DNA of 64,000 nt, taken from an uncultured Candidatus Saccharibacteria bacterium. GTDB lineage: Bacteria > Patescibacteriota > UBA1384 > CAYGGE01. The notes below the pieces were generated by a model, which saw nothing but the letters and a program-made list of their open reading frames with translations, did not search any database and was not told the DNA's origin. The translations under genes were made by a program, and so were the position numbers. The stretch lies in assembly GCA_964349485.1 (NCBI GenBank), contig CAYGGE010000001.1, positions 4,665-68,664 of the forward strand. The letters run 5' to 3'. Shown in pieces: positions 41,165 to 63,544 of this stretch (the first letter of the stretch is position 1; every line of letters starts with the position of its first letter).

Positions 41165-43081
41165 ATGGTCTCTAGGATCCCACGCCATCTCTCCATTTTT
41201 CTCGTAGCGACAATCGTTATGAGTTATTTCATTTCGCCAACCAATTTGAATGCCCAATCATCAGCAAGCACGACCAGCGCCGATACGATCACTGAAGATG
41301 AGGCAAGTGCGCTCATTGATGAGGCATTGGGTGGCAACGTGGCTGAGATTGTGGCAAGCAAGGACGGTGTAACCGAGGAAGAAGTCCAGCCCGATGCTTG
41401 TCTAGATAGTTTTAACCCAGCCAACGACTCAACAAAGACTGTTTTCAATGCTGGGATCATATTGAGTCGGGGCATTCCTCCCTACCTTCACCAATGTTTT
41501 ACTCTCGATGAAGACGGTGAAACGATTATTCATAAGTTTAAGTATAAGCTCCAAGGTCAGGATGGCGACACGATTTGGGAGCAACGGTTTACGCCGGCGA
41601 AGAAGACAGATCCGTCACTGCCTAAAATCTATGCGGGATGTGTTGGCATATCAAGTATCTCTGCCGCTGGAACGATCCCAATCAGGAGTTGTCAACAAAA
41701 TGCTTACCTATCTCGTGATTATTTTGCCTATGGCGAGAATGATGTCAAACTGACTACCTCGTCGTCATTTTCCGCTGTCGCTGGTTCTGGTGGCAGTATC
41801 AATGAAACTAAGCAAGTATTTAACGAAGAAGTTGAGCTCTACCAATTCGACACCGCACTCAGCCCTCGCCCGAATGCTTTCTTGGTAGTATCAATAAAAA
41901 ATAAGCTAGTGTACGGTCTCTATGAGATGAATACTGCAAGACTCCACATGAGTCCCGCCCAACGCAAGGCAGACCGTACGAAGAGCTTTACCACCGATGA
42001 CCTCAAATTTATTGCCCCAAAAAATAGCGGAACAGACTATGCCAATTTGCCAATCATTCAACACTATATTGCATCTATGAATGGTCTCATTAGCAAACAG
42101 CGTCCTGTCGCTTACCCTTTCCAACCTGTCTCGCCCGTCACCGTTCCAAACGCAGCAGACCGATCAGCCTATACAAGGCAGGGGGTAAAAAACTTGTTCG
42201 GATCAATAACGAACTCGTTTATCTTAAGAGCCGGAAGAGAGAAGGATTTGACACTTGAGGATTCAAGTGCCGATCCAAATCCAACTACCCCTCCCGTGGT
42301 ACGAATCAGCAAAGCAGCGACTGGGCTACCTCAGGATCTCACCCCAACGCTTCGCTACCTGCCCTATGTTTCCACTCGTATCGATCTGACACAATTGGCC
42401 TTCGAGGTGAAAAACAACTACTTCTTCTTTGCGTTTGACAAACTATCGGACGACATGGTCAAATCGTTCAATATTCGGGGCATCGATCCCGATCTGATCT
42501 ATTTAGCCATCGATGTCGGTGGCAATATTGCCTTCGTCGTTGAAGATACTTCCAACGGTGGTGGCATATTCCAAAACGATCGTAAAAAGCTCGATCCATT
42601 TGTTGTGTTTGGCAAGTTTGATAGTGACAATCAAGTCAGCACAAACTTGCTCAATGAATCATTGCACATCGATCGGGAAGAGTACAAACAGGTTCTAACC
42701 ACTCGGGTATATAACGAACCTCAGGTACCGAAGTCTGACGGTAAAGACTGTGGAGCTCTCGTGCTCTATCCACAGTTGAACATAGGCTATGCAGACGAAT
42801 CATTCCCTGACGGTATACCTAAAGGTGATTACCGCAAATGTATCAACACTTCACCGGACGGTTGGCTGTCAACCTGGGGCGTACAAATAAAGAAGCTCGA
42901 TTCCTTGAAAGATCCTTGTGTCTTGGCCTTTGAACAGAAGGGTAACTACTGGTTCAACTTCTTTGTTGGTGGACCGATGGGCCGTTCAGTCTGCTGGGTT
43001 GTGGGGGTAGCTACTAACGCTGCGGTCTGGATGGCTGGCTTTTCAGTCGACTTTCTTATTGGAGCTGTCGGTTTGCAGTAA
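41165..43081 (+). CDS. Secreted protein of unknown function (first gene of giant-ORF cluster); the ORF track starts at TTG 41066
   Basis: ATG 41165 is in frame with AAGGAGG just upstream. The signal peptide is MVSRIPRHLSIFLVATIVMSYFISPTNLNAQ. About 600 aa has no recognizable motif. The C-terminal hydrophobic segment is VVGVATNAAVWMAGFSVDFLIGAVGLQ. Confidence 0.7.
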   Translation: MVSRIPRHLSIFLVATIVMSYFISPTNLNAQSSASTTSADTITEDEASALIDEALGGNVAEIVASKDGVTEEEVQPDACLDSFNPANDSTKTVFNAGIILSRGIPPYLHQCFTLDEDGETIIHKFKYKLQGQDGDTIWEQRFTPAKKTDPSLPKIYAGCVGISSISAAGTIPIRSCQQNAYLSRDYFAYGENDVKLTTSSSFSAVAGSGGSINETKQVFNEEVELYQFDTALSPRPNAFLVVSIKNKLVYGLYEMNTARLHMSPAQRKADRTKSFTTDDLKFIAPKNSGTDYANLPIIQHYIASMNGLISKQRPVAYPFQPVSPVTVPNAADRSAYTRQGVKNLFGSITNSFILRAGREKDLTLEDSSADPNPTTPPVVRISKAATGLPQDLTPTLRYLPYVSTRIDLTQLAFEVKNNYFFFAFDKLSDDMVKSFNIRGIDPDLIYLAIDVGGNIAFVVEDTSNGGGIFQNDRKKLDPFVVFGKFDSDNQVSTNLLNESLHIDREEYKQVLTTRVYNEPQVPKSDGKDCGALVLYPQLNIGYADESFPDGIPKGDYRKCINTSPDGWLSTWGVQIKKLDSLKDPCVLAFEQKGNYWFNFFVGGPMGRSVCWVVGVATNAAVWMAGFSVDFLIGAVGLQ

Positions 43082-43086
43082 ATGCT

Positions 43087-45654
43087 ATGCAAAATAATAA
43101 TCGCCAACAGATCACTTATCTCGCCCTCCTAAGCCTATTCATCATGGGCATGTTTGTGGCTACATCGCCGACCGTAACACACGCCCAAGACCAGGCCGTC
43201 AGTATCGATCTGGCCGATTGTGCGACCACCCAGCGCCAGAGCACAACCAAAGCTAAAAACGATGTCGCACTGACTGAGACTAAACAATTGACCGAGAATT
43301 TTCTGCTAAATGCCTTCACCTACCAAACGCTCAATCAGCGGTTACGTTGTGATCCACTGATTGTCGGCGTTCTCGACGATCAAGGCAAGCCAACGACAAC
43401 AAGTATCTACAAGACATCACAAAACTTGGTTAATTTTGGCGTCTTAGTCGCTTTGCTCATCATTGCTTTTGCCAATATTCTGCCGCTGAAAATTGAGACC
43501 TATGCGGTAAAAAAAGCGGTACCAATGTTAGTACTTGGTGTAGTTCTCGCTAATCTAGCCCTACCAATGATCCGGACCGTAGTCGATTTTTCTGGTGTCC
43601 TGACTGCCACGCTAATTAGCTCTGCCACCCCTGAGCAGACCCGAACGGCCTTCGTCGAACAGCTCGTTAGCACTGTCTATAAGGGCGGAGCGGCGGCCAC
43701 CGGCGATGCCCTACGAGGAATTGCCACAGGTAATGGTGGGTTAAATGCGGCGATCGGCATTGTCGGTTTCGGTGTCGCGCTCGCTGGGGCAACCGGACCA
43801 TTCTTTGTGGCTCTCTTTGTCGGAGTCCTCTTCCTGATCACTCTTCCCAGTATCATTTTCCTCTATCTCGGTATCCTGTTTGTGGCCCGCATTTACGTCT
43901 TAGTCATCCTAACCGCGACCTCACCGATTGCTTTTGCCTCGATTGGCTTTGAGCCGCTCAAAGGGAAGATTTGGGCCTGGTGGTGGAAGCAGTTTATTAA
44001 CTGGACGTTCATGGCCCCGGCAACCTTCTTCCTCATGTGGGTCAGTATTCGGTTCTATCAGGCCGTTAATGAGCAACCAGATATTGGGACCTATGTCCTC
44101 ACGCTCGCCCTCCTCTTCCTCGCGGCCCAAATCCCGACCAAAATGGGTGGGACGATTATCAGTAAATGGAATGACACCTTCGCCGCTCCATTACGCAGTT
44201 TGGCTCTGAAGCCGTTTACCAGCGCCAAGGACTATGTTCAAAAGGCCGCCCCGCGCGATCTGTCTCGGTTCGCCAGCAACCGGGGGCTCAATCCAGTAAA
44301 ATTTGCCTCTGAGTTTGGCGCCGCCGTCGAGAAGAAAAATGCCGAACGCGAGACCTATTCCAAGTCTGCTGGCGCTGGTCGGTTCTATGGGACGATTCGG
44401 GGCTCAATGCAAAATGTATGGTCTAAGCAGGAAAGGGATGAAGCCTGGGCTAATCGGTTTAATAATTCCGATGTCCGCGAAGAGTTTCGAAAGAAATCTC
44501 AAATGGATATCATAAAACGCTACCATTTAGATCAGTCCATGATTGAAGATAAAACGACTAACGCTGGGAATAACGAAGACATTAGGAGTGCGCTTGAAAA
44601 AGATCGAGAGGCGGTTAAGGCTGGCACTATCACCGAACAAGAGAAGATTCGTAACATCATATTAAACCACGGTCAGCTTGGTGGTAAATTAAGCGATATC
44701 GATGCCACCGCCCTTTTTGAAAAGATTCAAAATCCCGCGCTTCGAGATGACTTAAAGAAGCTCTACGCTGCTTACTACACGAGAAAAACCGACGATCCAT
44801 ATAGTTTTGGTACATCGCCAGCCGAGCTGAGCAAGGCCAATGAAAGTCGTGATGAGCAAAATAAGGTGAAGCCGGACGAGCAGTTCTCGAAGGACTTGGC
44901 CGCACTAGGCAATCGAATTGCCAATGCCATCAGCACCGCCGCCGAAAACAAGAAAGAGAAAGAATATCTAACTCGAATGCTAGATCAGCTACGAACTATG
45001 AACATAAACCTTAATGATCTTGGAGCGATCGAAAAAGATATCAATGCCCTAGCTACTGTCAAAGCCTTGCTCAAGTATGGTAAGAATGCGCCAACCGATG
45101 GTCAAAACAGCTCTACCATGGCTGAGATTGAACAACACCGAGCCGCCCTTGGTGTAATTAGGATTGAAAAGCTTATCAGTTCTCCAAGTGGTGCGGCGTT
45201 GGCCGCCGCAATCAACCACCAGCGTCAAGAGCGGGCCGACAGTGGCGGTTCTCCATTTGTTCAGCTTGATCTAAATCAGCTCCAAGGCTTACTATCTCAA
45301 GGGACCAATCATGACCCGGCCCAAAGCCAAGCCATCAGAGAGGCTATAGAAAATACTAAAGAACTTCGAGATTTCCTTAAGCACTTGCTAACTACCTCAC
45401 TTAGTGCAAAACTCGATGTCGGAGATCTTGATAGATTGGTTAATCATGTTCTGCCCGAAGATGGCATACCAACAAAACTACATGCCGAAGCAATCAGGTC
45501 TATTGTCTCCGATAAAAATAAGGCCTCACCGGCAATTGCCCAGGAAATCGCCATGCGGGCCGAGAGCTACAATAATGCAGTCGACCAAATTAACGAAGCA
45601 AAAGCCATGCAGCAGATTACTGCCGGACACGTCACCACGACCGTCAACAGCTAG
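43087..45654 (+). CDS. Polytopic membrane protein with VirB6/TrbL-like architecture plus about 520-aa hydrophilic C-terminal extension
   Basis: Signal peptide (LALLSLFIMGMFVATSPTVTHA), about 90-aa exported N-domain, then 5-6 TM helices (LVNFGVLVALLIIAF; VPMLVLGVVLANLALPMI; IGIVGFGVALAGATGPFFVALFVGVLFLITLPSIIFLYLGILFVARIYVLVILTA; FINWTFMAPATFFLMWVSI; YVLTLALLFLAAQIP), then a long helical tail. This layout is typical of T4SS VirB6/TrbL proteins. Starts 5 nt after the upstream stop. Confidence 0.5.
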   Translation: MQNNNRQQITYLALLSLFIMGMFVATSPTVTHAQDQAVSIDLADCATTQRQSTTKAKNDVALTETKQLTENFLLNAFTYQTLNQRLRCDPLIVGVLDDQGKPTTTSIYKTSQNLVNFGVLVALLIIAFANILPLKIETYAVKKAVPMLVLGVVLANLALPMIRTVVDFSGVLTATLISSATPEQTRTAFVEQLVSTVYKGGAAATGDALRGIATGNGGLNAAIGIVGFGVALAGATGPFFVALFVGVLFLITLPSIIFLYLGILFVARIYVLVILTATSPIAFASIGFEPLKGKIWAWWWKQFINWTFMAPATFFLMWVSIRFYQAVNEQPDIGTYVLTLALLFLAAQIPTKMGGTIISKWNDTFAAPLRSLALKPFTSAKDYVQKAAPRDLSRFASNRGLNPVKFASEFGAAVEKKNAERETYSKSAGAGRFYGTIRGSMQNVWSKQERDEAWANRFNNSDVREEFRKKSQMDIIKRYHLDQSMIEDKTTNAGNNEDIRSALEKDREAVKAGTITEQEKIRNIILNHGQLGGKLSDIDATALFEKIQNPALRDDLKKLYAAYYTRKTDDPYSFGTSPAELSKANESRDEQNKVKPDEQFSKDLAALGNRIANAISTAAENKKEKEYLTRMLDQLRTMNINLNDLGAIEKDINALATVKALLKYGKNAPTDGQNSSTMAEIEQHRAALGVIRIEKLISSPSGAALAAAINHQRQERADSGGSPFVQLDLNQLQGLLSQGTNHDPAQSQAIREAIENTKELRDFLKHLLTTSLSAKLDVGDLDRLVNHVLPEDGIPTKLHAEAIRSIVSDKNKASPAIAQEIAMRAESYNNAVDQINEAKAMQQITAGHVTTTVNS

Positions 45655-46098: not shown

Positions 46099-49000
46099 AT
46101 GCATAAAGCTAGAACTATACATATGAAAACGACTAAACACGACTATTATTTATATGATTATCCCGCCGACCGATGCCGTACTGAGCGGTTCCTAAAGGAT
46201 CCTATTGAGTTGCCCGGCTATCGACCAGAATTTCTCGGTACGCCACAATCCAACGATCTTCACATCGACTCGCCGCGGTTTAAGGACATGAGCTTTAAGG
46301 ATCAGATGCGGGTAATCGCGGCAAACCCTGACTTTGATCTACCGAGCATTGAGCTTAAAGACCTTGAACGCTCCCCGTTATTGAATTTTGGTGAAGGATT
46401 TGAGAGCCGACAACCGTCATCCCGCGAAGAGTGGCTGAGGCAAGAAAGCGTAGTCATCCCGCCTGGAGTTGGACCAGAAGATATCGACTGGTCAACTGCT
46501 CCTGATGCAGGTTACCAATCACCTAAGTATGGCGCCGGTAAGGCCCCCGAAAGCGCGCCGATGAGCCAAGAGGAGATGCGCGTACTCCTTTGTCATGTCA
46601 TCCCTGCCGAGCTTATCCCCTTTGTCCTAGACAATATGGTTTTCGATTACAGTAGCGATAACGACCCTGATGCACCAGTCGCGACGGTACAAGTGAAATC
46701 GAGAGCTGGTAAAGACAAGATCCATCTCGTCTTTAATAAATCGGCCTTCATCACCCGTGGCGCTCCGCGAAGTCTTCAGGAAACAGCCTTCGAGAAAGCT
46801 AACGCGATTCCCTTTCACAAAGGCAAGGCTGATACAACGATTACTAGCTTTCAAGACCCTTCAAAGATCGCACTGATTGTCAGTCGAGTGTTGGGTATGA
46901 CCCTCCCTCCCCCAGAGAACTGGCAGGACAAAGTCCCACCCGGTTTTAAGTTACTCCAAGACGATACGAAACGGGAGGCGCAACGGCGTGGTGGGCGGGC
47001 GGTAATTGAAATTGAAGATGAAGTGGGTATGGAAAACGCAACCTTCGCCGAAGCTCGTCAGCGACAGTGGGAAGACTTTGTTTCCTTAGCAATAACCGCA
47101 CCGGCTTTAGCCAAACAGACGTCTGGACTGACCTATGCCTACTTCGAACAAGCCGCTAGTCAGATGCTCGATATTAACCTAAGTGACGAGGCAGTCGAAC
47201 GCTTAAAGCTGAAAGGTAAGATTGCGATCAAGAATTTCCAGATGGTTGATCTGCGCAGTCAAGCCGACAAGGATAGAGCCAAGGCCGATGCTGGGACGGC
47301 TGGACCCGGTGGTTATTGGTTCGATAAGATATTCACCGGTGCTAATAAGGCCTTAAAAAAACTAAACCTCTTCGGCTGGAAACTTCGGATCGTCTACGAA
47401 CTACCAGAAGACCCGGCTCGCATGGCAACATTGGGCGACGATGCGGCTGAAGTCAAGAAATACCTTGAAAACTATCGACAAGAAGACCGAGAGAAGATCT
47501 TCGGACGAGTCATGCGCCAGGCTCGTCAAGACAACCCAGAAGACCGAGCTAAAGCTAGACGATTAATTCTAGCGAGTTGTGAGAGTGAAGACTGGCACGA
47601 ATGGCGCGAGATTGCTTATCTATATATGTTCTCAAAAAAATTCCGAGACAGTAAAGGTATGATGATCGACAAGTCCGACTTCCTTGATCTTCGCATGTTC
47701 CATAACACCTCATCACAGCGGGGCAAACGTTTCGGCTCGGACATGATGCCCTACAGTGCTGTCATGGCGCCCGATCCTGACGATGTAACCGGCCGTCAGA
47801 TCTTCCAATTCAAGCGTAAGTCTAAAGAACAGTACTATGCCTCAGTCCGAGCAAAGCTTGAAGAGAAATCGGAACGTGAGGTCCAGGGCGTTGCGCGTTC
47901 AACCTTTGATACATACGAACTTAGTGAGGGCGGCCGAGTAAAACCAGAGGATCTCCACAAAATCTACAGCGCTACACCTGAGGGCATGGACACTACCTAT
48001 GGTCGACTGGATAAATTACTTGGTCCAGTTCTGGCTCGTACAATCGTCAATAATTTTCTTGAGCCTTTGGGAGTTGAGCGGATACCACCCGACTCAATTT
48101 ATAGTCTTGAACGGCTAAGACGCATTGCTCTTGATCCAAAGGGTAAGGGGCTTAACGGTGAGCACATGCCTGGTCCAGCTAAGACCCTGATTGGTCACTT
48201 TGGCGCCCGACTCGACCGCCCACCGACGAAAGAGATTGGTGCGTGGCTCGAAGGAACTCATCACCTGTCATCGTCTACCCCAGCGGATCAAGTGACTGCT
48301 CTCATTAACCAAGGTGAATCACTTAAAGGCCAGCTCCTAGCGCAGATCATCAGTGTAGCGTCCATGCCGGTTGGTGGCGTTGAAGGTGGACAGCCACTCC
48401 TCTCGCGGCCAATGCGAGATAAAATGATCAAGGGCCTGCGCTCAGGCTTCCATAATTATCGCGATATTTACCAATATGTCACCGCTAACCCGCCGGAATT
48501 TAAAGCACCGCCTGATACCCCACCAGACGTCCTCCTTACATTACGCGAGCGTTACGATGAGCGCTTGCGCCAAGAACGGTCGAACCTTCTCTTTGTCCTA
48601 CATAGTCTGGCACATGACGGAACCGGCGAAAACTCGCTCGCCCTTTACGGTGAGATCGCTGAGCGCCAACGGGCAATTCTTCCTGAATCATTGAATACGA
48701 TTAGCAATGCCGCGTCGACTGTTGCACCGGAGTTGGTCATTACGACCGATCCAGGCGAGCCTGACCAAACTAGACCCGAAAATGAGCTGGATAAGAACGC
48801 CCGAGAGGCTCAAAAGGCCCAGCGAGCCGCTGATCTAGCAGACCTCGCCAAGGCTGGCCTTATCGATAAAACGGAGATGACTACCCGACTGTCCGCCAAA
48901 CGAGCAGAGATCGAGGCTTTAGTGCGCAATGAAGTGTTGAACGATGAGTATGGTAAACCTAAAACACTCAACGACGAACAGAAAGCCCAGGCAGAGCTCA

Positions 49001-49443
49001 CCATCGCCGCCCAGGTCAAAGACCGAGCGAAGAATGAGTTGCCTAACGAGGAGGCACGCTATCTGGCTGAAGCTTTCTCGCAAGCTTCAATCGGCAATAA
49101 GGAGCTCTATATCGACGAACGAGTAGCCAACGCACTTTCTGGCAATAATTCGCTCGATGCTTATCTCAAAAAAGCCGGCGTCGATGATGATTACGAGGCA
49201 GTCTACCAAAATTGGGAGAGCGGTCCGGGTCGGATATTTCGACTACCAGCCTTTGCCAAAGTACGCCAAAAACTTATCCAGGCGGTTCATGACATGAACA
49301 GTACATTTAGCTTCAATAGTGGGCTAGCATCTTTAAGCCGGGTCACACAAGATCTCGATCGAACCCTCGCCTTTACCCGAGCTGAACGCACGCCAGTCAA
49401 AGTTGAAAAAAAGAAAGCTAAACCCGACGATGATAGTGATTAG
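46099..49443 (+). CDS. Giant hypothetical protein (1114 aa), predicted soluble, coiled-coil C-terminal third
   Basis: Uninterrupted 3.3-kb ORF with no TM, no Walker A and no known catalytic motif. Coiled-coil-like segment NELDKNAREAQKAQRAADLADLAKAGLIDKTEM... Confidence 0.8.
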   Translation: MHKARTIHMKTTKHDYYLYDYPADRCRTERFLKDPIELPGYRPEFLGTPQSNDLHIDSPRFKDMSFKDQMRVIAANPDFDLPSIELKDLERSPLLNFGEGFESRQPSSREEWLRQESVVIPPGVGPEDIDWSTAPDAGYQSPKYGAGKAPESAPMSQEEMRVLLCHVIPAELIPFVLDNMVFDYSSDNDPDAPVATVQVKSRAGKDKIHLVFNKSAFITRGAPRSLQETAFEKANAIPFHKGKADTTITSFQDPSKIALIVSRVLGMTLPPPENWQDKVPPGFKLLQDDTKREAQRRGGRAVIEIEDEVGMENATFAEARQRQWEDFVSLAITAPALAKQTSGLTYAYFEQAASQMLDINLSDEAVERLKLKGKIAIKNFQMVDLRSQADKDRAKADAGTAGPGGYWFDKIFTGANKALKKLNLFGWKLRIVYELPEDPARMATLGDDAAEVKKYLENYRQEDREKIFGRVMRQARQDNPEDRAKARRLILASCESEDWHEWREIAYLYMFSKKFRDSKGMMIDKSDFLDLRMFHNTSSQRGKRFGSDMMPYSAVMAPDPDDVTGRQIFQFKRKSKEQYYASVRAKLEEKSEREVQGVARSTFDTYELSEGGRVKPEDLHKIYSATPEGMDTTYGRLDKLLGPVLARTIVNNFLEPLGVERIPPDSIYSLERLRRIALDPKGKGLNGEHMPGPAKTLIGHFGARLDRPPTKEIGAWLEGTHHLSSSTPADQVTALINQGESLKGQLLAQIISVASMPVGGVEGGQPLLSRPMRDKMIKGLRSGFHNYRDIYQYVTANPPEFKAPPDTPPDVLLTLRERYDERLRQERSNLLFVLHSLAHDGTGENSLALYGEIAERQRAILPESLNTISNAASTVAPELVITTDPGEPDQTRPENELDKNAREAQKAQRAADLADLAKAGLIDKTEMTTRLSAKRAEIEALVRNEVLNDEYGKPKTLNDEQKAQAELTIAAQVKDRAKNELPNEEARYLAEAFSQASIGNKELYIDERVANALSGNNSLDAYLKKAGVDDDYEAVYQNWESGPGRIFRLPAFAKVRQKLIQAVHDMNSTFSFNSGLASLSRVTQDLDRTLAFTRAERTPVKVEKKKAKPDDDSD

Positions 49444-49524: not shown

Positions 49525-52500
49525 ATGCTCGGACAACGGAATATGGAGGAACCCGGATTTCAACTTCTGCCTAAAGCAGAAGATATTTCGGGTAAAGAAG
49601 TCCATTTAGAAGGCACCCCCGGACGCCTAGCCAACTCCGACATCATGCTCGACGAACTCAGTGATCAGGTTGAGGTTGGTCTCAAAAAACGATTTGTCAC
49701 TAACCGACGACGCGAACTTGAAAATGGTGAGGCTAAGTGGCTCACTCGATTTGAAGCTGAGTTTCAGGGAGACGCCCCACACATTTACCGTGACATGGTC
49801 CTCGATAGGGATGAGGCGAGTTGGGATGCAGATTTGAGACTTGCCAAATCTTCGCTACAAGAGCTACTTGAGGAATTAAATAAAGCCAAAGCGACTACTT
49901 TTAAAACACTCGGTGAGCAGATTGGGATCATGACTCGCCAATTCCAAGTTAGTGAGGAGACCGATAGAACAATACGCGCGCTTATACTACAAGCAACAGA
50001 AGATAAAGATGCATTTGATACCGCTCGTAATGAAGCAATTAGAGTTATCAAAGGGATTCTAGACGAGCAGACCGCAATAAAGCTTGAACTAACTCAAGCC
50101 ATGACTACAAGTTGGGATAGTACAAGTAACGCAACTAAAGCATTTATTAAGCGTCGTTGGTTTGCCAAGCGTTGGGCTGAGGAATTAGGAACGATAGAAC
50201 GCGAGGCTGAACTTGATGTGTTGAAACGAAGGTACAACGCGCCGTACGAAGTCCACACTGGACATGAACGAAAAGTCTACGAAGCGATACTCGAGTGGCG
50301 TAAATTGAAAGCTAAGATGAACGCCGGCGGTTTAGACCAGACTCGACGAGCAGAAATTGGTCGAGCGATGAAAGAACAGGCGGCTGTTGTTCAAGAACAT
50401 ACCTCAACTCTTACTGGTACATTCGATAGTCGATTTGAACAAGACGCCGACGGTATCTCACAAGCTAAAGGCGCCGCCTGGGCGGAGATCCATGACCTCA
50501 TCGACAAAAATCGCACGACGACTGGTGACGTGAAAAAAACCTTCCTCGAGATCAACGCTAACTACGACCGGGGTAGTATCGAGACCGCCAACGAAAAAGC
50601 GATGGCCTTCTTCCAGTTTGGCATCGCCAAAAATGCTCTGAAGCAATTTGGTCGCTATAACATAACTCAGTACCTTCGTGACTTCCCCTACCAGACTATG
50701 GAAGAAGACCCTGAGCTTGACGATAAGAGGCGACCAGCTATGGTCGCTGAAAAACGAGATGCTGCCGATGCAGCACACCAAGAAGCAACAAAATTGCGAG
50801 AAATACACAAGGAGCTTAATGATAAGCAGACAGAGACTCAATTACTCTATGAAGATATGGCTGCTGCAGTCAATGAACTAAAAACTCAATATAATATCAA
50901 TCGAGCAAATGCACCGCTTGTGCGTAACCCAGCAGGTGGTGCAGATATCCCTGATCCAGTAGCGCTTAGAGAGTACCGTGAACAATTTCAAACAAGACTT
51001 GCTCACCTTGTTCTTCAGCGCGACAGGATGCAAAAGGCACTCGCTGAAGCACGTAATGAAACAAAAGCAGCCGACCAAAGAGCATTGGCGGCAGAACGCG
51101 ATCACACAGAAAAGCAGGCCGCCTACTCGGCAATCAACACTTTACACTCTACTCCGACCGACCTAGCCACACGCCGTGCCACTGCCGCTCGAACCATCCG
51201 CACCGATAGTGGTGCGTATGCTCGAGAGCGTTTGCGTGACCTTCGCACCAAACTCCAGCAGTTTGTCGGCCAAGACAATCTACGCAAAGACTTTTACAGC
51301 ATCTTCAATGACCGTGAGATACTCGTCATTGCCAAGATCTGCGGCGAGATACCAACTCAAAAACATGAACGCACCGGTCGAAGGATATTTGCGCCACGTG
51401 TCGTCGAGACTTGTGGGGGGGCTGATGCCGACTATTGGTTCATTAACCCTTATGCCATCCCCGAGTGGACAGGCAAGGTTTCGAACGATGTCGTGCGTGA
51501 GCTGTTCGACAACGCAGGCAGGTATCCAGAAGTCCAACAAATGGTTAATGACCTGAAGACCCATAATAAGATAGTAATTGTCGCTGGTTTCCCAGTCAAT
51601 TTCGATCTTGATGGGGGCATGAACGAACAACAGCTCGCCCAAACTGGCCAAGAGCTCGATCTCTCCGATAGCAAATTTAAAGCTATGAAGGCCGCCTACG
51701 GCTTCGCTAACGATTCTGACTTCTTTGCCCGATGGCTTGACGATCTTGAGTTGCAAGAGAAGCTAGGAATGCGCCCCGAGGAGATGGAAGATCGCTACGC
51801 TACCTGGATGGCCAAGCGACACTTACTGCGCAATCAACACTTTGCCGCTGGCGAGGGTTGGACCTATGTCGACACGGCTGTCGCTTCTAGCGCTCGTAGA
51901 TTTGTCGATACCGCCAAGCGACTACGCGACGGTGGCTATGAACTAACTGGAGTAGATTTCCGTCGCTCACCCTACTACAACCGTTTAATACGGGATAATG
52001 AGTATGCTGTCACGGTTACCGAAAACACGGGTCAGCGAAAAGTCAGTTTCCGTAACCAGGAACTGACAGAAAAAAATGAGGCTCCTCAGACCGTCGCCAA
52101 ACGGTTGTACGATTCATATCGCGGAACACTCAATCTTTACTATCAGCGAACCCAGATCGGTGGCCAATCAACCGCTTTCGATGCTGACGCGCCGATCGAC
52201 GATCTCGGTAACTTTGTCCAGGCCAACATGGCTCTTATCCAGAAGAAGATGCAGATCTTGAAATCAATCTACGAATATCCAACCATGAGTGCTGAAGAGA
52301 AGATTAGCAATATGATCCGCTTCCGCAGTGGTGATCCAATATTCGCTCCAAGCATCGGCCTAGTTACTCCTGGCGCACCGCCGCCGGTCGGGGTTCCCCT
52401 ATTTACAGATGCCAACGGCAATCCAGACCCTGGTATGATCTATCTCACCTATGACATCGTTACCGCCGCCGGTGATCCCAACCTTCAGGCAACGAATCCT

Positions 52501-53619
52501 GAGCTTTGGGCTGAACTAGACGCCACAGTCAACTGGCAGAAAAAACTCAATACTGATTATCGCGATGCGGAGCAACGACTGGTTAATACGCTAAGTAATC
52601 GTTCTGCGACCGCCATTGAGATTGACACGGCTGAAGCCTTTTACGATACACAACTTCAATTAATGCGTAACTATAAGGTTCGTTCTCACCTCCTTGGCAT
52701 GCAAGCCGCTGGCCGATTTTCCGAGATGGATAGTAGCGGTATCGCCGAATACATGGCCGATATGCACTCCGATGTGGCCATGACCGCGGTCATCCGCCGT
52801 CAAGAGCTTGAGATGGCGGCACGAAACCGCCTAGATACTGATCATCCTCGAATTCTTCAGCCATTACGTCAGTTGGCCGTCGGTTTAGTCGGTAAGTTAG
52901 CTCGTAATAGAGTAGCTGACTTTGCCCGAGGTGTCGGCAATGCAATCGGTGTTGGAGATAAATTCTTACGAGAACTCGATGAGCGCCAAGTTACTCATCT
53001 AATTGAGAATAAAGTCGACGACGAGGTCTTCCGCCGAGTGGCTGCCCACGTTGCGCTCAATCTTAAGACTGGCTACAGCAACAACTTTTGGCATGTCCGT
53101 CCCGGCAATGCTAAGAGTGATGTCTATCCGCGAACTAGTGATGTTCGTGATTTGCTGGGCCTACGTAGTAACCAAGCGATTACTGGCGGCGTTGAGATGA
53201 CCCAAACCGGTCAACGATTGCTTAAGGGTCTTATGAAGACGCGACTGAAGGACGATGTCAACGAGGCGGTTGAACGAACAATCCGACTCAACATGAGTCA
53301 ATTCGTTCGAGCCGGCAAAAAAGGCGGTTGGAATGTCGATGAAGTTATCCATACTTATCTCAATGCTAAGATGAAAGATACCCAACGAGCTGTCTTCCGT
53401 AGCGGACGTTGGGAGACTAATATGTATGCCACCACCGGCACACCTATTGCCATGGCAGACCGTTGGCTGATGCAGCTGATTCGCGAGCGAACCAACCGAG
53501 GCACTGGCAGGGGCTGGTTCCAGGGTTTGATGCCTAGTGTAGCAGCAAATGATACTCGACCAGGACCGATTAATGAAAATCGCACAACAGTAACCACTGA
53601 CTACATCAATCGACCGTAA
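49525..53619 (+). CDS. Giant hypothetical protein (1364 aa), predicted soluble, N-terminal coiled-coil region
   Basis: 4.1-kb ORF; no TM segment or NTPase motif; helical heptad-like N-terminal 500 aa. Confidence 0.8.
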   Translation: MLGQRNMEEPGFQLLPKAEDISGKEVHLEGTPGRLANSDIMLDELSDQVEVGLKKRFVTNRRRELENGEAKWLTRFEAEFQGDAPHIYRDMVLDRDEASWDADLRLAKSSLQELLEELNKAKATTFKTLGEQIGIMTRQFQVSEETDRTIRALILQATEDKDAFDTARNEAIRVIKGILDEQTAIKLELTQAMTTSWDSTSNATKAFIKRRWFAKRWAEELGTIEREAELDVLKRRYNAPYEVHTGHERKVYEAILEWRKLKAKMNAGGLDQTRRAEIGRAMKEQAAVVQEHTSTLTGTFDSRFEQDADGISQAKGAAWAEIHDLIDKNRTTTGDVKKTFLEINANYDRGSIETANEKAMAFFQFGIAKNALKQFGRYNITQYLRDFPYQTMEEDPELDDKRRPAMVAEKRDAADAAHQEATKLREIHKELNDKQTETQLLYEDMAAAVNELKTQYNINRANAPLVRNPAGGADIPDPVALREYREQFQTRLAHLVLQRDRMQKALAEARNETKAADQRALAAERDHTEKQAAYSAINTLHSTPTDLATRRATAARTIRTDSGAYARERLRDLRTKLQQFVGQDNLRKDFYSIFNDREILVIAKICGEIPTQKHERTGRRIFAPRVVETCGGADADYWFINPYAIPEWTGKVSNDVVRELFDNAGRYPEVQQMVNDLKTHNKIVIVAGFPVNFDLDGGMNEQQLAQTGQELDLSDSKFKAMKAAYGFANDSDFFARWLDDLELQEKLGMRPEEMEDRYATWMAKRHLLRNQHFAAGEGWTYVDTAVASSARRFVDTAKRLRDGGYELTGVDFRRSPYYNRLIRDNEYAVTVTENTGQRKVSFRNQELTEKNEAPQTVAKRLYDSYRGTLNLYYQRTQIGGQSTAFDADAPIDDLGNFVQANMALIQKKMQILKSIYEYPTMSAEEKISNMIRFRSGDPIFAPSIGLVTPGAPPPVGVPLFTDANGNPDPGMIYLTYDIVTAAGDPNLQATNPELWAELDATVNWQKKLNTDYRDAEQRLVNTLSNRSATAIEIDTAEAFYDTQLQLMRNYKVRSHLLGMQAAGRFSEMDSSGIAEYMADMHSDVAMTAVIRRQELEMAARNRLDTDHPRILQPLRQLAVGLVGKLARNRVADFARGVGNAIGVGDKFLRELDERQVTHLIENKVDDEVFRRVAAHVALNLKTGYSNNFWHVRPGNAKSDVYPRTSDVRDLLGLRSNQAITGGVEMTQTGQRLLKGLMKTRLKDDVNEAVERTIRLNMSQFVRAGKKGGWNVDEVIHTYLNAKMKDTQRAVFRSGRWETNMYATTGTPIAMADRWLMQLIRERTNRGTGRGWFQGLMPSVAANDTRPGPINENRTTVTTDYINRP

Positions 53620-53630
53620 GGAGGGAAGCC

Positions 53631-54449
53631 ATGCCTAAACCACTGACCCAATCGCTATTCAAACCAACCGATTTTGATCTGTTTCTCGATTCGATTGGCC
53701 TCTCCAAACAATCGAAGGAAGCTCGGATCAGCTTGATCGATCGCATGCAACAGGCGGTTGAATATCAGATTGTGACTCAAATCTTTAGCCGGCTCACTGG
53801 GGATGAGAAATTAAATCTCATTGATCTCATGAAAGAAGCTGACGAAACTGAAAACGAAAAACCAGTCAATGATTTTCTGCTGGAAAAGATCCCCGATATC
53901 GAGATGCTAGTCGATGAAGCGATCGATAAAGTTAAGAATGATCTCCGGATCGGTACCGCCGGCATGGCAGCCGCCATGGCCGAAGATATGGCCGTGCTCT
54001 CGAATCCAAAGGGGCTTGATTCGGGCGGATCGGCAGACGACTCATCCATCGTGGATCCTACAGCAGACACCATGAACGAGTCACCATCAAAGATCGAGCC
54101 AGTCTCCCATGCCGTAGCTTCCGAGCCAGAGACCGAAACGTCGTTCAGTCATACTGATCTACCATTTCCATGGGAAGCACCAGCCGGGGCCGCTGAAAAC
54201 CTTATGGCCCAACCAACTACGCCGACCGACGGTACAGACCGTAGCCGCCAGACAATTGACGCCTTTCCTTGGGAGGCCGACGTTAAGAACCATTCTGAGC
54301 CCGGGGCTGCTGCGCTCGGCGAGACTATTTCGAAAGCTGTGTTTCCGGCGGTTGACGAGCCAACTGTCAATCCAGCACAGGCGACGAGTAACCCGATTGA
54401 CGACGAACTGCGCGACTTGAACCAACCAACCCAAGTAAATAACCCCTAA
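53631..54449 (+). CDS. Acidic hypothetical protein (272 aa)
   Basis: AAGGAGGG RBS 11 nt after the upstream stop; D/E-rich, P-rich C-terminus. Confidence 0.6.
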   Translation: MPKPLTQSLFKPTDFDLFLDSIGLSKQSKEARISLIDRMQQAVEYQIVTQIFSRLTGDEKLNLIDLMKEADETENEKPVNDFLLEKIPDIEMLVDEAIDKVKNDLRIGTAGMAAAMAEDMAVLSNPKGLDSGGSADDSSIVDPTADTMNESPSKIEPVSHAVASEPETETSFSHTDLPFPWEAPAGAAENLMAQPTTPTDGTDRSRQTIDAFPWEADVKNHSEPGAAALGETISKAVFPAVDEPTVNPAQATSNPIDDELRDLNQPTQVNNP

Positions 54450-54451: not shown

Positions 54452-54796
54452 TTGGGCACACGAACCATGATCAAGCTTGACCCGATAAGCGAGAGCATCT
54501 GTCGTCGGCTTCGGCTATTCCAAGGCCTTCGACCGCTAGCTGAAGATACTGATCTAATGCACACCTTCCAAAAGGTTTTTGCGCAAGAACTTTTAACGTT
54601 CGTTGAGAGCCGGTTTGATATTGAACAGAAAACGCAACTAACACGATATCTCGAAAGCGGTCAACAACCAGACGCGACGGCCCTACTCAGTTTTGCGAAT
54701 CAGATTTTTCACGCCAATCCACAGACAGAGACGCAGTTCGAGCAACGTATCACCGCTCTTCTAGACGATTTCGTCAGTAAGGCGACCCATGCGTAG
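54452..54796 (+). CDS. Hypothetical protein (114 aa), overlaps the next gene by 8 nt
   Basis: Starts 2 nt after the upstream stop; its stop overlaps the ATG of the 54789 ORF. Confidence 0.5.
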   Translation: MGTRTMIKLDPISESICRRLRLFQGLRPLAEDTDLMHTFQKVFAQELLTFVESRFDIEQKTQLTRYLESGQQPDATALLSFANQIFHANPQTETQFEQRITALLDDFVSKATHA

Positions 54797-57700
54797 CCCA
54801 GAGCTAACCACTACGAGTAAGGGTAGCCTACACATGCCGCCCGATATTTTGGTTGGCTATTCTCTGACGCCGCCAGTATCAAAAGAATCCGATAAGACTG
54901 TATCAAGCCAACAATATGCTCGTTGGGCACCTGACATTTTGGTTGGCTATTCTCTGACGCCGCCTGTACCCAAGGAAGCTATCAGCCCTGGCATCCTGAA
55001 AGACCTTGAAGACAGTCAACGAGAGTTGCGCGAAGTGGCACAACAGAGCAGATCCGAGATCCGCGTACTTCAAAGTCTGCTCACCGAGGCAGCGGCTAAA
55101 GAGAAGCAGTTAGTCAGCGAACTGGACATACAGAAAGCCGCTCGAAGCGTAGCAGAGGCAAAGGCGAGAGAAAAAGAGACAGCCGCTGCAGCCCAACAGG
55201 CAGAGTTACGATTGAGACAGGATGCGCTCGAGGATGTAAAGCACGAATACCAATCACTCCAGGACCAACTTAAGTTGGTAGCCGAACGAGCTACAACTAT
55301 TCAAAATGAGTTAAACGCTGCGACAGCTCAGATCAAAAAACTAGAGGGAGCGGTTGCTAAGGCGGATCAAACCACAAAACTAAGTGAGGAGGCCTATCAA
55401 CGATTAGCTGAGACGATCAATCATGATGACGTAGATGCCCAAGCGGCCCAAGACGTGACAGTCGCTCGTTTGGCTGAACTCCGCAGACAGCTTACTGAAC
55501 TTCAAAAAGAAAATACTGATCTCAGTCGAGATATAGCATCGAAGACTAGTCAAATTGAGGAGCACGGGCATGCGGTAGCGGTCTCACAAGCACTGACTCT
55601 AAGTCTGATCGCGGAACGTGACCAAGCCCAAGGTTTGTTGCGACAAGCCAATGAGGCCTTCACGGTAACAGTGAAGAGTCATGAAGAGCTAATGGCTAAC
55701 CTCTTGGAGCAGTTTAACTCTACGTACAATGTGCACCAGACAGCCATCGCAACGGCGAGACAAGAAGTGGTCACAGCAATCCAAGCGAAAGATGAAGCCG
55801 AAACAGCCGCCCTCGAAGCGATGAGTAAACTTGAGGAGGCTACTACCAAGTCTGCAGCTGATTCAACGACTATCTCCCAGCTTAATCGTAGGCTCCATGA
55901 GCTAACTGAACGGACTGCGGCCGCTCAAGCCACCGCTGATCAGGCAACAACCAGAGTTAACGAACTCGAGGAGCAGAATCGACAGCTTACCGGCGAGCTA
56001 CAACGCTTCCGCGACGACCCATCAGTCGCCCGGCTTGAACAGGAAAAGATCGAACTGGCAGAGAGCTTGGCTGACAAAGAACGTGAGCTGGTCACTAGGA
56101 CTGAAGAACTCACCACAACGAGCGGTGAGTTTGCGCTACGAATCCGCACTTACGAACTTGAAATCAGTCGCCTCCATACTACTATTGAAGAAATAGTCGC
56201 ACACCACGAAAGCACTGTCGTCGAACTGCGTACAGAGCTGGCACGCGTCTCCGTACCAACAACTCAGACTGACAAAACCAGCGAGGCCGGATCGACACCC
56301 TTAGCGATCAACGAGGCCACACCACGTATTACTGAGCTTCAAGCCGAAATACGCACCCTGGAAGAACAGATTAGTCTCCAACAAGCCACTAATCAATCCT
56401 TAATTGACCAGATGACCGCCGATTCGGCCACTGCTGCGGCTGAGATAGAACGAGCCAGACAGGAATCGACTACCACCAGCCAAGAGCTTACCAGAAGACT
56501 CGACGAAGCAACAGCACAGGTGGCAGATCAAACCAGACAACTTCAGGAGATGACGGAAAGTAGTGCGATCGATATGAAGTCTGTACAGGAATCTCTGACA
56601 CAGACTGGCCTACAACTGGCCGCCGCTACCCAACAAGCGACTGAGGCAATACTACAAACTACTCAATTGACTACAGAGCTTGAGGCTGCTAAACAACAGA
56701 TTACCGAAGCGAAGGCCGAGGCAGAGCGACTGGCTACCCTCCGTGCCGAGGACGCACAACGATGGCAAGCGGAGCGTGATCGTCTGCGCCAACCTGGGTT
56801 ACTCCAACAGCTCCTCGATCGACTAATTCGACCAACACCCCCACCCCCGCCAGTCGCTCCTGGTCCTGTAGCCCCTAAGCCGGTCACTCCAGCAACCATG
56901 TCAGAAGAAGCTGAGCGAAAAAAGGTCAGTCGTCGAAGGCTATTACAGCTTGGCGGAGGCATCGCCACAACGATCACTGCGGCAGTTGTGCTTGAGAAAG
57001 TAATTAGTCCTCCAGTTAGTCAAAAAACTACGGAGACCCGCAGGGCCTTTATCGAGTCCCCTTCCCTAGCTACTCTCTATGCTGATATCAAAGAACCAGT
57101 CACAGAACAGCTGTTCATCGAACGCGGTAGTCTCATCGAAGATAAGGAAATTATCCATACGGGCTCGATTGTTCATACCGGCGACCTCCTAGATCGCTGG
57201 ACCTATTTAGCTCGTGAGCTCGCCGAAACTCAGGAAGATCACTTGAATGCAGCAACGCTGATTAAATATCGCAATACCATCCTCCTTTGTCGAAGCGCGA
57301 AAGATCTTTACCCTCAGGCAGTTAAATTTCAATTTATCGAGAAAGATGGCAAACTAACTATCATCCCGCTCGACTGGAAGGAGAAAGTAGCCGTTCGCCG
57401 AGAGATTAAGTCAGACCTAGTAATTGCCGGCGGTGAGATCGAAGCGATCGTGGCGGCGATGCATGCCGTCAAGAAAGGTATGCGACCAACTTTGATCTAT
57501 CAAACAGGCAAGTTAGGCGGTCTCAATTCGGATACTGGCGCCAATATGGCTTACTTTGATGCCGTGAATAACGGTACGGTCAAACCACCAGAGGAGATGG
57601 TTGAACTATTTCAAATTGGACTTGGCATGCCAGCAGGTAGCCTCATCTCTCTAAACAATGAAGGCCTAGATCAAAAACTACACCGGTTTTTGAAAACCCA

Positions 57701-63091: not shown

Positions 63092-63111
63092 GCTAATAAC
63101 AAGGAGACAAT

Positions 63112-63513
63112 ATGGATGACGACAATGCCCAATCGCTCGACACTTACCGTGAACAATACACTTTTTACGCAAAGAAGTTGCTCTCTGACCTTGGTCTCGG
63201 TGATCTCGGCCAACCCGAACGAACAGAGCTACTTTCAACTATTGAGCAGTATGTCCAGCAAGTGATCATGAATACCCTGCTCGAGAACCTTGATGAGCCA
63301 ATTACTACCGAGGCAGAGAAAATACTGAACGAAGGTGGCACGCAGGAAGATGCCTTGGTCTATATCATGAGCGCCATCCCCGACATTGAATACCGCATTA
63401 CCGTCGCCCTGACTGAATCGTACGCCCGCATGGTCGACGAGGCCAGACAGCTTGCTGATACTCTCGCCGCCAATAAGCCCAAGCAAGCGGCACACGCCCA
63501 AGCGACTGAGTAA
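63112..63513 (+). CDS. Small acidic hypothetical protein (133 aa), last gene of the cluster
   Basis: AAGGAGA RBS; followed by a terminator. Confidence 0.6.
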   Translation: MDDDNAQSLDTYREQYTFYAKKLLSDLGLGDLGQPERTELLSTIEQYVQQVIMNTLLENLDEPITTEAEKILNEGGTQEDALVYIMSAIPDIEYRITVALTESYARMVDEARQLADTLAANKPKQAAHAQATE

Positions 63514-63544
63514 TAACGGGCGAATAAGTTAACCCGAACCGAGA

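Follow-up and report, generated by a model that had tools for sequence, protein, structure and literature searches.

Genes and features at the locus

The stretch of DNA that we analyzed (the window) is 64,000 nt long, and a real, conserved open reading frame on its forward strand encodes a membrane protein that we refer to as VirB6-like (Table 1). The locus lies among housekeeping genes (PolA, Mur ligase, FemAB, and LeuRS), and its GC content is uniform. Relatives with VirB6-like proteins of only 28–39% identity retain this housekeeping synteny.

Between LeuRS and the VirB6 cassette, the first gene, which is conserved, encodes a TPR-like protein. Its orthologues in L003 and L004 are likewise placed, and L016 and L017 have genes of comparable size after LeuRS or FemAB; that of L017 has a faint TPR_17 match, and its counterpart in L016 is without a Pfam match. 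A secreted partner is encoded immediately upstream of the VirB6-like gene. The N-termini of its orthologues and a GGAGG Shine-Dalgarno sequence indicate that its true start is probably the ATG and not the TTG that opens the ORF. It carries a signal peptide, and its C-terminus is a conserved module (a cysteine, about 20 residues, another cysteine, a hydrophobic stretch, and a terminal ...GLQ); in L003–L008, the genes that precede the VirB6-like genes end with a counterpart of its last ~50 aa. As an earlier, sequence-only reading of the window had pointed out, just 5 nt separate the stop codon of the secreted partner from the start of the VirB6-like gene.

Table 1. Features of the locus. The last four rows lie past the end of the window, and their positions are given as if the window continued.
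Feature	Position	Strand	Basis or remark
Small TPR-like protein, 166 aa, one hydrophobic segment	40475..40975	+	Weak TPR_11 match
Secreted partner protein, 638 aa (probable start)	41165..43081	+	Translation; ORF opens at TTG 41066
Extended VirB6-like protein, 855 aa	43087..45654	+	Principal finding
Signal peptide (aa 1–33) and exported N-domain (aa 34–112)	43087..43422	+	Hydropathy, family alignment
Conserved hydrophobic core, aa 65–395	43279..44271	+	AF2 model, pLDDT 88.7
Segment aa 268–355, aligned to TrwI/VirB6 residues 169–266	43888..44151	+	hhalign
Hydrophilic helical tail, aa 353–855 (~500 aa), predicted cytoplasmic	44143..45654	+	Alignment, positive-inside count
Gln/Pro-rich small protein, 142 aa	45664..46092	+	Orthologues in L002–L004
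1114-aa hydrophilic protein	46099..49443	+	Orthologues in L002–L004, 26–28% identity
1364-aa hydrophilic giant	49525..53619	+	No Pfam match; orthologues in L002–L004
272-aa acidic small protein	53631..54449	+	Weakly DUF5663-like; weak paralogue of the 133-aa protein
114-aa ORF, TTG start, putative coding	54452..54796	+	ORF list
1372-aa acidic giant	54789..58907	+	Duplicated PDILVGYSLTPPV motif at N-terminus
1366-aa very acidic giant, net charge -61	58991..63091	+	Homologous to the 1818-aa giant of L015
133-aa acidic small protein	63112..63513	+	Orthologues in sister genomes immediately precede PrgI/VirB3
Terminator-like hairpin, 15-bp stem then U run	63538..63580	+	dG -23.7 kcal/mol, z -6.7
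345-aa membrane-anchored, weakly GH25-like protein, start only	63629..64000	+	Cut by window end
Three WD40-like paralogues	beyond window, between GH25-like gene and PrgI	same strand	L009 gene calls
PrgI/VirB3	67290-67763 (window-equivalent)	+	PF12666, E 1.3e-9
TraC-like protein	67772-68401 (window-equivalent)	+	Precomputed match only
VirB4 ATPase	68398-70212 (window-equivalent)	+	P-loop_TraG 1.2e-28, AAA_10 7e-13

The VirB6-like protein begins with a hydrophobic segment (aa 9–27) and a likely signal-peptide cleavage site (...THA, then Q). The exported N-domain (~85 aa, about aa 28–112) contains two invariant cysteines, C45 and C88. C-terminal to it, hydropathy indicates seven hydrophobic helices that are conserved in the family, so the protein is polytopic (at least five hydrophobic helices), and an AF2 model of the core is all-helical. 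The sequence-only reading had recognized the signal peptide, the exported domain, and the long tail, but it counted 5–6 transmembrane helices; its one very long hydrophobic run (aa 221–288) is three helices. The charges of the loops agree with the positive-inside rule and with an N-out/C-in orientation. Hydropathy thus suggests an N-out/7-TM/C-in topology; where the tail lies is uncertain because just two VirB6 helices are membrane-embedded in the R388 structure (PMC12857230).

Conservation is concentrated in the core. Among 17 full-length homologues (32–39% identity overall), about 70 residues are invariant, which is far above the chance expectation, and nearly all of these lie within aa 45–368. 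The tail is poorly conserved, with scattered conserved positions in the family alignment, and its sole Pfam trace is a sub-threshold match to DUF2935. A profile search found the core domain in 7,571 cluster representatives, and the total length of all 152 relatives listed ranges from 459 to 1592 aa.

Most of the loci examined have a small gene after the VirB6-like gene (98–155 aa in L006, L007, and L017). In this lineage, giant genes and neighboring small acidic genes are intercalated between the VirB6 cassette and virB3/virB4. These giant, lineage-restricted genes span ~17 kb. None of the four giants (1114, 1364, 1372, and 1366 aa) belongs to a convincing Pfam family; their best match, of the 1372-aa giant to FAD_oxidored (E 2e-5), is sub-threshold. 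The 1114-aa protein has no Pfam match, signal peptide, or transmembrane segment. At the same position, L007 and L017 encode proteins of 920–966 aa, with no detectable sequence similarity to it. The sequence-only reading was right that these genes are giant, but strictly speaking they are no ORFans: sister genomes have orthologues of three of the giants (1114, 1364, and 1366 aa), and only for the 1372-aa giant was none seen there. The 1818-aa giant of L015 sits upstream of PrgI. The 133-aa protein is 48% identical to a 144-aa protein of L013 and 52% identical to a 140-aa protein of L015. That the giants might be repeat adhesins or targets of a diversity-generating retroelement finds no support in the window: they show no detectable paralogy to each other, and, save for one 48-nt duplication, they lack internal DNA repeats.

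The motor genes lie past the end of the window

The sequence-only reading noted, as an implied oddity, that no ATPase of a type IV secretion system (T4SS) accompanies the gene. This is correct for the flanking 20 kb: the Walker A motif [AG]x4GK[ST] is absent from every ORF between 40475 and 63513, and its two occurrences in the whole window are in a 370-aa P-loop protein and in a polytopic membrane protein. We rejected the idea of a degenerate VirB4 hidden in a giant ORF, as neither a Walker A motif nor an ATPase domain was found in any giant. But the “missing” ATPase is a window-edge effect. Another contig (L009) matches window positions 61597–64000 with 0 mismatches over 2,404 nt and runs on past the window end, where it encodes PrgI/VirB3, a TraC-like protein, and VirB4 on the same strand, 3.3–6.2 kb further on. 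For the TraC-like protein, hmmscan at E ≤ 0.01 gave nothing. The Walker A motif of VirB4 is GKAGSGKS. PrgI/VirB3 is 21.6 kb downstream of the VirB6-like gene and VirB4 starts 22.7 kb after its stop codon, with 15 genes between virB6 and virB4 by our count. The 3' part of the cluster also holds further conserved genes, including one for a PEGA-domain protein, and the gene directly after VirB4 in sister genomes encodes an SLT-type cell-wall hydrolase. The VirB6-like gene is the 5' member of this co-oriented cluster of ~30 kb.

The terminator-like hairpin overlaps the region's best sigma-70-like promoter site (TTGACA-17-TACAAT, 11/12 matches). Together, they are predicted to mark the boundary between a transcription unit with the VirB6-like gene and the giants and another with VirB3 and VirB4. 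With ~22 kb, the hairpin, and the promoter between them, co-expression of the VirB6-like gene with virB3/virB4 is uncertain.

These features, and the lack of an ATPase within 20 kb, would also fit an orphan VirB6 paralogue that works without any T4SS motor, perhaps as a channel in its own right or as an anchor for the giant proteins, a view close to that of the sequence-only reading. In the same vein, no VirB4 was seen within 10 kb downstream in L017, and 176 of 480 reported VirB6 homologues of Patescibacteria are not near virB4 (PMC12102498). We nevertheless consider an orphan unlikely, given that VirB3, the TraC-like gene, and VirB4 follow on the same strand. For an identical VirB4 (P0273), the longest contig on record is 211,632 bp, the same figure as for the VirB6-like protein (P0001), and the two proteins agree likewise in two sister genomes. 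Also, no second VirB6-like gene was seen beside VirB4 in L009, L013, or L015. Finally, L016, a more distant relative, has the same neighborhood of PolA, Mur ligase, FemAB, and LeuRS, but with a compact cluster of VirB6, a 320-aa protein, PrgI, TraC, VirB4, SLT, and PEGA genes, which shows that the VirB6 part and the VirB3/VirB4 part belong together ancestrally.

The VirB6-like protein is a divergent homologue of VirB6

The sequence-only reading assigned the protein to the VirB6/TrbL family and named the lack of a PF04610 match as evidence against itself. Formally, this is what we found: neither the VirB6-like protein nor its core matches PF04610 at E ≤ 0.1 in a Pfam scan. An NCBIfam scan of the protein at E ≤ 0.1 was likewise without a match, Pfam and NCBIfam scans of its neighbors turned up no relevant family, and nothing was found when the PDB was searched by sequence with the protein or the core profile. 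(A PDB search with a full-length profile of 51 sequences gave only coiled-coil noise from the tails, such as ClpC and SMC, and was discarded.) We attribute the lack of a PF04610 match to divergence and not to absent homology, and four independent lines of evidence place the protein in the VirB6/TrbL superfamily.

First, 7 of 51 distant relatives match PF04610 (best E 5.8e-7), and further ones match TrbL_4 or TrbL_3, on the same hydrophobic core. Protein P0066 matches PF04610 at E 0.009, with a score of 16.2 bits that does not reach the cut-off of 25.9 bits. Second, we used hhalign to compare a profile of 149 core domains with the TrwI family (121 sequences, all PF04610), and the two aligned with a probability of 92.1% (E 6.1e-7, 88 columns) over the C-terminal half of the core only. 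The aligned segment contains the motifs R-x11-SP-IAFASIGFEPLKGKIWAWWW and QIPTKMGG. The R-x11-[AS]P spacing is also present in PrgH of pCF10, and hhalign against the single sequence of this PrgH was not significant. Third, as the sequence-only reading had proposed, we compared a structural model with known structures. The AF2 model of the core (pLDDT 88.7, pTM 0.83) was searched against 350,542 PDB chains with Foldseek, and ranks 1–6 were all R388 TrwI/VirB6 chains, with probabilities of 0.98–1.00 (rank 7 was at 0.11), although the TM-scores to TrwI were 0.31–0.47 (below 0.5) and the E-values 0.01–0.16. An earlier, poorer model gave the same result. Fourth, distant homologues are encoded 1–5 kb from PrgI, TraC-like, and VirB4 genes. 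In addition, tblastn of the core against plasmids gave matches only at E ~1, two of three of them in a truncated “TrbL family” gene, which is suggestive only; tblastn with P0066 gave no match.

Might the likeness to VirB6 simply reflect generic hydrophobic helices in an unrelated, CPR-specific polytopic protein, such as a transporter, flippase, or sensor? No curated model matches the protein, its TM-scores to TrwI are low, and profile matches with hydrophobic helical proteins can be spurious. This explanation is very improbable because specific motifs ([AS]P-L/I...P-T-x-x-F-x-x-W and Q-L/I-P...G), rather than composition, underlie the hhalign match; because TrwI was the sole high-probability match in the PDB, with no transporter; and because a transporter would not be expected to lie near PrgI and VirB4 time and again in unrelated contigs. 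Overall, the hydrophobic core shares ancestry with TrwI, a bona fide VirB6. With its hydrophilic tail at aa 353–855, the protein combines a VirB6 core with a large central or C-proximal hydrophilic domain, which is how extended VirB6 proteins are defined (PMC12857230), and the resemblance to the extended C-termini of some VirB6 paralogs that the sequence-only reading had noted is borne out. Taken as a whole, that reading's interpretation is partly supported.

A chromosomal T4SS in Candidatus Berkelbacteria

Among genomes, the closest match comes from a MAG of an uncultured Candidatus Berkelbacteria (core identity 83%), and relatives of the VirB4 at 61–62% identity are also named Candidatus Berkelbacteria, so the host is a patescibacterium. 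By its gene content (VirB4, PrgI/VirB3, a TraC-like protein, a chromosomal location, and no relaxase seen), the system is an MPF_FATA-related T4SS of the Patescibacteria. We are confident that the gene encodes a very divergent extended VirB6 subunit of this chromosomal, monoderm-type T4SS of Candidatus Berkelbacteria (Patescibacteria/CPR).

The least credible alternative, that the locus is part of an integrated conjugative element that transfers DNA by classical conjugation, would agree with the conjugative nature of the closest characterized machinery (MPF_FATA/MPF_FA) and with the annotation of VirB4 relatives as “conjugal transfer protein TraC,” but it is contradicted by the location among housekeeping genes whose synteny outlasts the divergence of the VirB6-like proteins, by the uniform GC content, by the lack of any relaxase, integrase, or coupling protein in the ~73 kb examined, and by the absence of a relaxase from most T4SS loci of Patescibacteria (PMC12102498). 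The T4SS of this locus is probably not conjugative, and a role in host interaction, by effector export or macromolecule uptake, is more likely.

By analogy with R388, the extended VirB6 subunit, once its signal peptide is cleaved, would oligomerize and form the central platform or protochannel in the membrane, on top of the VirB3/VirB4 motor. The N-domain with its cysteine pair and the translationally coupled secreted partner, with its conserved C-terminal anchor, may build the extracellular part, in a VirB5-like role. The fast-evolving tail of ~500 aa would point toward the cytoplasm, as the same analogy suggests, and could serve there as a docking site for the ATPase, for substrates, or for a coupling protein.

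This account covers the locus but for the intercalated giant genes. The four acidic giants (1114–1372 aa), which interrupt what was anciently a compact virB6-virB3-virB4 operon, have no signal peptide, and next to each lies a small acidic gene. It is conceivable, though less likely than not, that they are lineage-specific cargo (effectors) of the T4SS with dedicated chaperones or adaptors, or else new cytoplasmic or structural additions to the machine. In that case, they would dock on the VirB6 tail and would offer a first handle on what the essential T4SS of Patescibacteria transports.

A cultivated patescibacterium cannot live as an epibiont without its T4SS, one of only a few systems for which such a need has been shown. 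In 2023, Wang et al. reportedly described a patescibacterial T4SS in Southlakia epibionticum. As these systems were already described in 2023–2025, the gene is a newly recognized, unannotated VirB6 member, and for most readers it will be an expected component of a known system. Its recognition removes the apparent anomaly of a VirB6 without a motor. It also identifies as VirB6 homologues a very large family of membrane proteins that have long tails and escape Pfam, which could improve the annotation of T4SS in Patescibacteria: the core profile, with its 7,571 cluster representatives, may find the “missing” VirB6 in classes for which published HMM surveys report few or none, such as Microgenomatia and Gracilibacteria (PMC12102498). 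The Berkelbacteria-specific block of giant genes within the cluster is a source of candidate substrates or accessory parts.

Comparison with known systems

The protein shares a homologous helical core with TrwI (VirB6) of R388, a member of PF04610, and both loci have VirB3 and VirB4. In both, a gene for a secreted protein lies upstream; in R388 this is TrwJ/VirB5, with a small lipoprotein gene between. TrwI is only 342 aa, versus 855 aa here, and it lacks the cleavable signal peptide, the N-domain with a cysteine pair, and the hydrophilic tail of ~500 aa; conversely, the protein described here has no direct PF04610 match. The Berkelbacteria locus is also chromosomal and probably non-conjugative, unlike R388, and its host is a monoderm and so has no periplasm or outer-membrane complex.

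Extended VirB6 proteins of 700–900 aa are known (PMC12857230). At the level of architecture, our protein resembles those of MPF_FA systems (TcpH, ConG, and Orf15) and the Rickettsiales paralogues in having at least five helices, a large C-proximal hydrophilic domain, and a similar length (PMC12857230). It differs from these proteins in its neighbors, as VirB4, PrgI, and a TraC-like protein are of the MPF_FATA-related type of Patescibacteria, whose prototype PrgH is short (266 aa).

The T4SS of Patescibacteria are chromosomal, MPF_FATA-like, and without a relaxase, and their VirB6 is often undetectable by HMMs, according to the survey of Quinonero-Coronel et al. 2025 (PMC12102498), which used profiles of MPF_T VirB6 and PrgH and a limit of -20/+20 CDS. 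The Berkelbacteria locus is alike in its chromosomal VirB4, PrgI/VirB3, TrsD/TraC-like protein, divergent VirB6, and cell-wall hydrolases, and in that no relaxase was seen. It stands apart in that this VirB6 was undetected by Pfam at E ≤ 0.1 and in that no VirB2 pilin, let alone a pilin array, was seen in the ~73 kb examined. The other difference is the 21.6-kb gap between virB6 and virB3, which consists of ~17 kb of giants and small acidic partners and, just past the window end, a 3.7-kb insert with the GH25-like and three WD40-like genes; with 15 intervening genes, it places virB6 close to the limit of the survey.

A divergent VirB6 homologue

The open reading frame that the sequence-only reading had singled out encodes an 855-aa protein, as described apart from small corrections. 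We derived its layout (see table) from single-sequence and family-averaged hydropathy. The claimed signal-like segment, exported domain, and hydrophilic tail are all present, but there are seven hydrophobic helices instead of the claimed 5-6, and the single very long hydrophobic run that had been quoted is three separate helices. Lysine and arginine are enriched in loops 134-145 and 289-303 and immediately past residue 352, and loops 167-220 and 325-333 are acidic or neutral. This charge distribution is consistent with a predicted topology of the N-out, C-in type. Of the VirB6 helices in the R388 structure, only two are actually embedded in the membrane (PMC12857230).

A word-indexed search identified 17 full-length homologues (32-39% overall identity), none of which is annotated. 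The closest genome match is an uncultured Candidatus Berkelbacteria MAG. Conservation lies mostly within aa 45-368 (about 70 invariant residues), and the tail can hardly be aligned across the family. With a profile made from alignment A2, which covers the core (aa 65-395), we searched 1.84 billion cluster representatives; 7,571 of them reached E <= 1e-3, and 1,297 reached E <= 1e-10. The 152 matches listed are all long (459-1592 aa), with variable N- and C-terminal extensions bordering the core.

Four independent lines of evidence agree that the earlier assignment, VirB6/TrbL-like, is right. First, the protein itself matches no Pfam model (PF04610 included), no NCBIfam model, and no PDB sequence, but seven of 51 distant relatives match PF04610 (TrbL; best E 5.8e-7). 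Other distant relatives match TrbL_4 or TrbL_3, and in the relatives checked, the TrbL-type matches fall within the shared core. Second, we collected 120 homologues of TrwI (the VirB6 of plasmid R388), all with PF04610, for an hhalign comparison of that family's profile with our own. The core profile aligned to the TrwI family over 88 columns (probability 92.1%, E 6.1e-7), which pairs aa 268-355 with TrwI 169-266; the shared motifs are SPIAFASIGFEPLKGKIWAWWW with GPLFILALIWQPTHRFFDQW and QIPTKMGG with QLPSIASG (VirB6-like versus TrwI). Third, we searched an AlphaFold2 model of the core (pLDDT 88.7, pTM 0.83, from a 100-sequence alignment) against 350,542 PDB chains with Foldseek. The top six matches were all TrwI/VirB6 chains of the R388 stalk (probability 0.98-1.00, versus 0.11 for the seventh match), and the ranking was the same for an earlier model of low confidence. 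As the TM-scores to the TrwI chains were only 0.31-0.47, we consider the modeled TrwI/VirB6-like fold to be suggestive rather than decisive. The fourth line is genomic context.

Features of the VirB6-like protein and of the loci that carry it (window coordinates unless a locus is named; aa, residues of the VirB6-like protein)
Feature	Position	Strand	Details
VirB6-like gene	43087-45654	+	855 aa
Signal-like N-terminal segment	aa 9-27		then ...THA/Q; hydropathy
Exported domain			~85 aa; two invariant cysteines, C45 and C88
Hydrophobic helices (7)	aa 113-133, 146-166, 221-241, 245-265, 268-288, 304-324, 334-352		hydropathy
C-terminal tail			~500 aa; hydrophilic
C-terminal module of secreted protein	42930-43081		last ~50 residues
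Carriers of the module in relatives	L003 8046-10004, L004 8410-9996, L005 63-1421, L006 1507-2307, L007 7424-8314
Small acidic proteins	53631-54449, 63112-63513		272 aa, 133 aa
Direct duplication, 48 nt	54840-54977		88% identity; 90-nt spacing
Terminator-like hairpin	63538-63580		15-bp stem, then U run; dG -23.7 kcal/mol, z -6.7
Weakly GH25-like, membrane-anchored protein	63629 to window-equivalent 64666	+	345 aa; GTG start; E 0.002, sub-threshold; cut by window end
Three tandem paralogues	L009 3120-5598 (window-equivalent 64716-67194)	+	208, 246, 230 aa; N-terminal membrane anchor
PrgI/VirB3	window-equivalent 67290-67763	+	PF12666, E 1.3e-9
TraC-like protein	after PrgI/VirB3 in L009	+	209 aa
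VirB4 ATPase	window-equivalent 68398-70212	+	604 aa; P-loop_TraG 1.2e-28, AAA_10 7e-13, DUF87 1.5e-10
More conserved genes	beyond VirB4 in L009	+	include a PEGA-domain protein
Conserved order	orthologous loci		PolA, Mur ligase, FemAB, LeuRS, TPR protein, secreted protein, VirB6-like, ~135 aa, ~1000-1100 aa, ~1400 aa, ~250 aa
Compact cluster	L016		363 aa, VirB6-like (974 aa), 320 aa, PrgI, TraC-like, VirB4, SLT/NlpC, PEGA, on to VirB2-like pilins
23S_rRNA_IVP/bAvd-like genes	L005 9138-9518, L006 5368-5739		small
661-aa ORF	20406-22391		N-terminal hydrophobic segment; no Pfam match

The VirB4 ATPase lies just beyond the window

No ORF from 40475 to 63513 has a Walker A motif, so the claim that no T4SS ATPase is adjacent holds within the flanking 20 kb. 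Using the 133-aa gene, the last one that is complete in the window, we retrieved L009, a 21.9-kb contig that is identical to window positions 61597-64000 across 2,404 nt. It encodes a VirB4 with the Walker A sequence GKAGSGKS on the same strand, starting 22.7 kb past the VirB6-like stop codon, just outside those 20 kb and 4.4 kb past the point where the window ends (25.3 kb from virB6 start to virB4 start). For both an identical VirB4 (P0273) and the VirB6-like protein (database entry P0001), the longest contig on record is 211,632 bp long; longest contigs likewise match for the sister Berkelbacteria MAG (40,557 bp) and the genome of P0008 (50,117 bp). VirB4 relatives from the same lineage bear Berkelbacteria names. 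The apparent absence of an ATPase is a product of the window boundary, about 17 kb of giant genes lying in between, and a 3.7-kb insert just beyond the window.

The weakly GH25-like protein may serve the T4SS as a VirB1-like cell-wall hydrolase. The tandem paralogues share 30-36% identity, and two of the three give weak matches to WD40-like repeats. Between the 133-aa gene and PrgI, they are found in this genome only and are absent from sister loci L013 and L015.

The loop and 3' arm of the terminator-like hairpin overlap the region's best sigma-70-like promoter match (TTGACA-17-TACAAT with TG), and the site marks a transcription-unit boundary in this genome. The other genes of the window are ordinary housekeeping genes (CTP synthase, phosphoglucomutase, GroEL, RecQ, PolA, Mur ligase, FemAB, LeuRS), and GC content is uniform along it. 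The 661-aa ORF lies in a stretch of unusually positive GC skew (20-24 kb).

Gene order in relatives

Gene order is kept in orthologous loci at 37-39% VirB6 identity. In the sister MAG, the stretch from the VirB6 cassette to PrgI continues with even larger giants of 3015 and 2043 aa (L013 1-8322); next comes the 133-aa protein's orthologue (144 aa), with PrgI, TraC-like, VirB4, and an SLT hydrolase directly behind it. The virB6 and virB4 starts are 31.4 kb apart in this MAG and 25.3 kb apart here; both the content and the size of the giant-gene block therefore vary. A third genome encodes an 1818-aa homologue of the window's 1366-aa giant and, next to it, the 133-aa protein's orthologue (140 aa); one opposite-strand gene separates the latter from PrgI, and in the sister genomes the orthologues are directly upstream of PrgI. 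The much more distant relative P0150 (profile E 3.5e-29) retains the PolA, Mur ligase, FemAB, and LeuRS neighbourhood beside a compact cluster (L016), and other distant relatives have PrgI, TraC-like, and VirB4 genes and hydrolases 3-5 kb away. Read most simply, these gene orders go back to an ancient T4SS cluster that was compact and chromosomal, and into which giants and small acidic neighbour genes would have been inserted in Berkelbacteria, between virB6 and virB3.

Genes of the bAvd type are accessory genes of diversity-generating retroelements. Two distant VirB6-like/T4SS loci (L005 and L006) have 23S_rRNA_IVP/bAvd-like genes that adjoin large unannotated genes; the window has no such counterpart.

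Putative partner proteins

As had been reported, the VirB6-like gene starts 5 nt past the stop codon of its upstream neighbour. This short gap and the lack of a Shine-Dalgarno sequence of its own suggest translational coupling. The upstream gene encodes a secreted protein (638 aa) that is weakly conserved overall, but its C-terminal module (Cys, ~20 residues, Cys, and a hydrophobic stretch ending ...GLQ) recurs at the very end of the protein encoded just before the VirB6-like gene in every locus inspected. The proteins bearing this module, which matches no known family, are otherwise unrelated and always precede VirB6-like genes. In R388, a VirB5 pentamer is docked on the VirB6 pentamer (PMC12857230), and by analogy, the secreted protein may be an extracellular partner of the VirB6-like platform.

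All four giants (1114, 1364, 1372, and 1366 aa) are acidic, with no signal peptide, transmembrane segment, convincing Pfam domain, or detectable mutual similarity. At its N-terminus, the 1372-aa protein carries a repeated PDILVGYSLTPPV motif, which the 48-nt duplication encodes. The genes of the two small acidic proteins each follow a giant. The two proteins are weakly paralogous (profile E 1.7e-4, small database) and, given a faint similarity, are possibly DUF5663-like.

Comparison with known systems

Our results raise the questions of what the giants and small partners do inside a T4SS cluster and whether the core profile recovers "missing" VirB6 proteins across Patescibacteria. A survey (PMC12102498) detected only 480 VirB6 homologues, 304 of them near virB4; it called VirB6 "scarce or absent" for some of the classes and read this as "suggesting extreme sequence divergence". 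The T4SS of Patescibacteria are described as chromosomal, related to monoderm MPF_FATA systems, free of relaxases, and made up of VirB4, TrsD, PrgI/VirB3, VirB6, and VirB2-like proteins (PMC12102498). In Southlakia epibionticum, the T4SS is essential, with proposed roles in effector delivery or in nucleotide/DNA uptake (PMC11665869, PMC12857230). "Extended VirB6" is a recognised subfamily of 700-900 aa with hydrophilic domains (PMC12857230). The VirB6-like protein agrees with these descriptions on all points; it is very probably a very divergent, previously unannotated extended VirB6 of an already known system.
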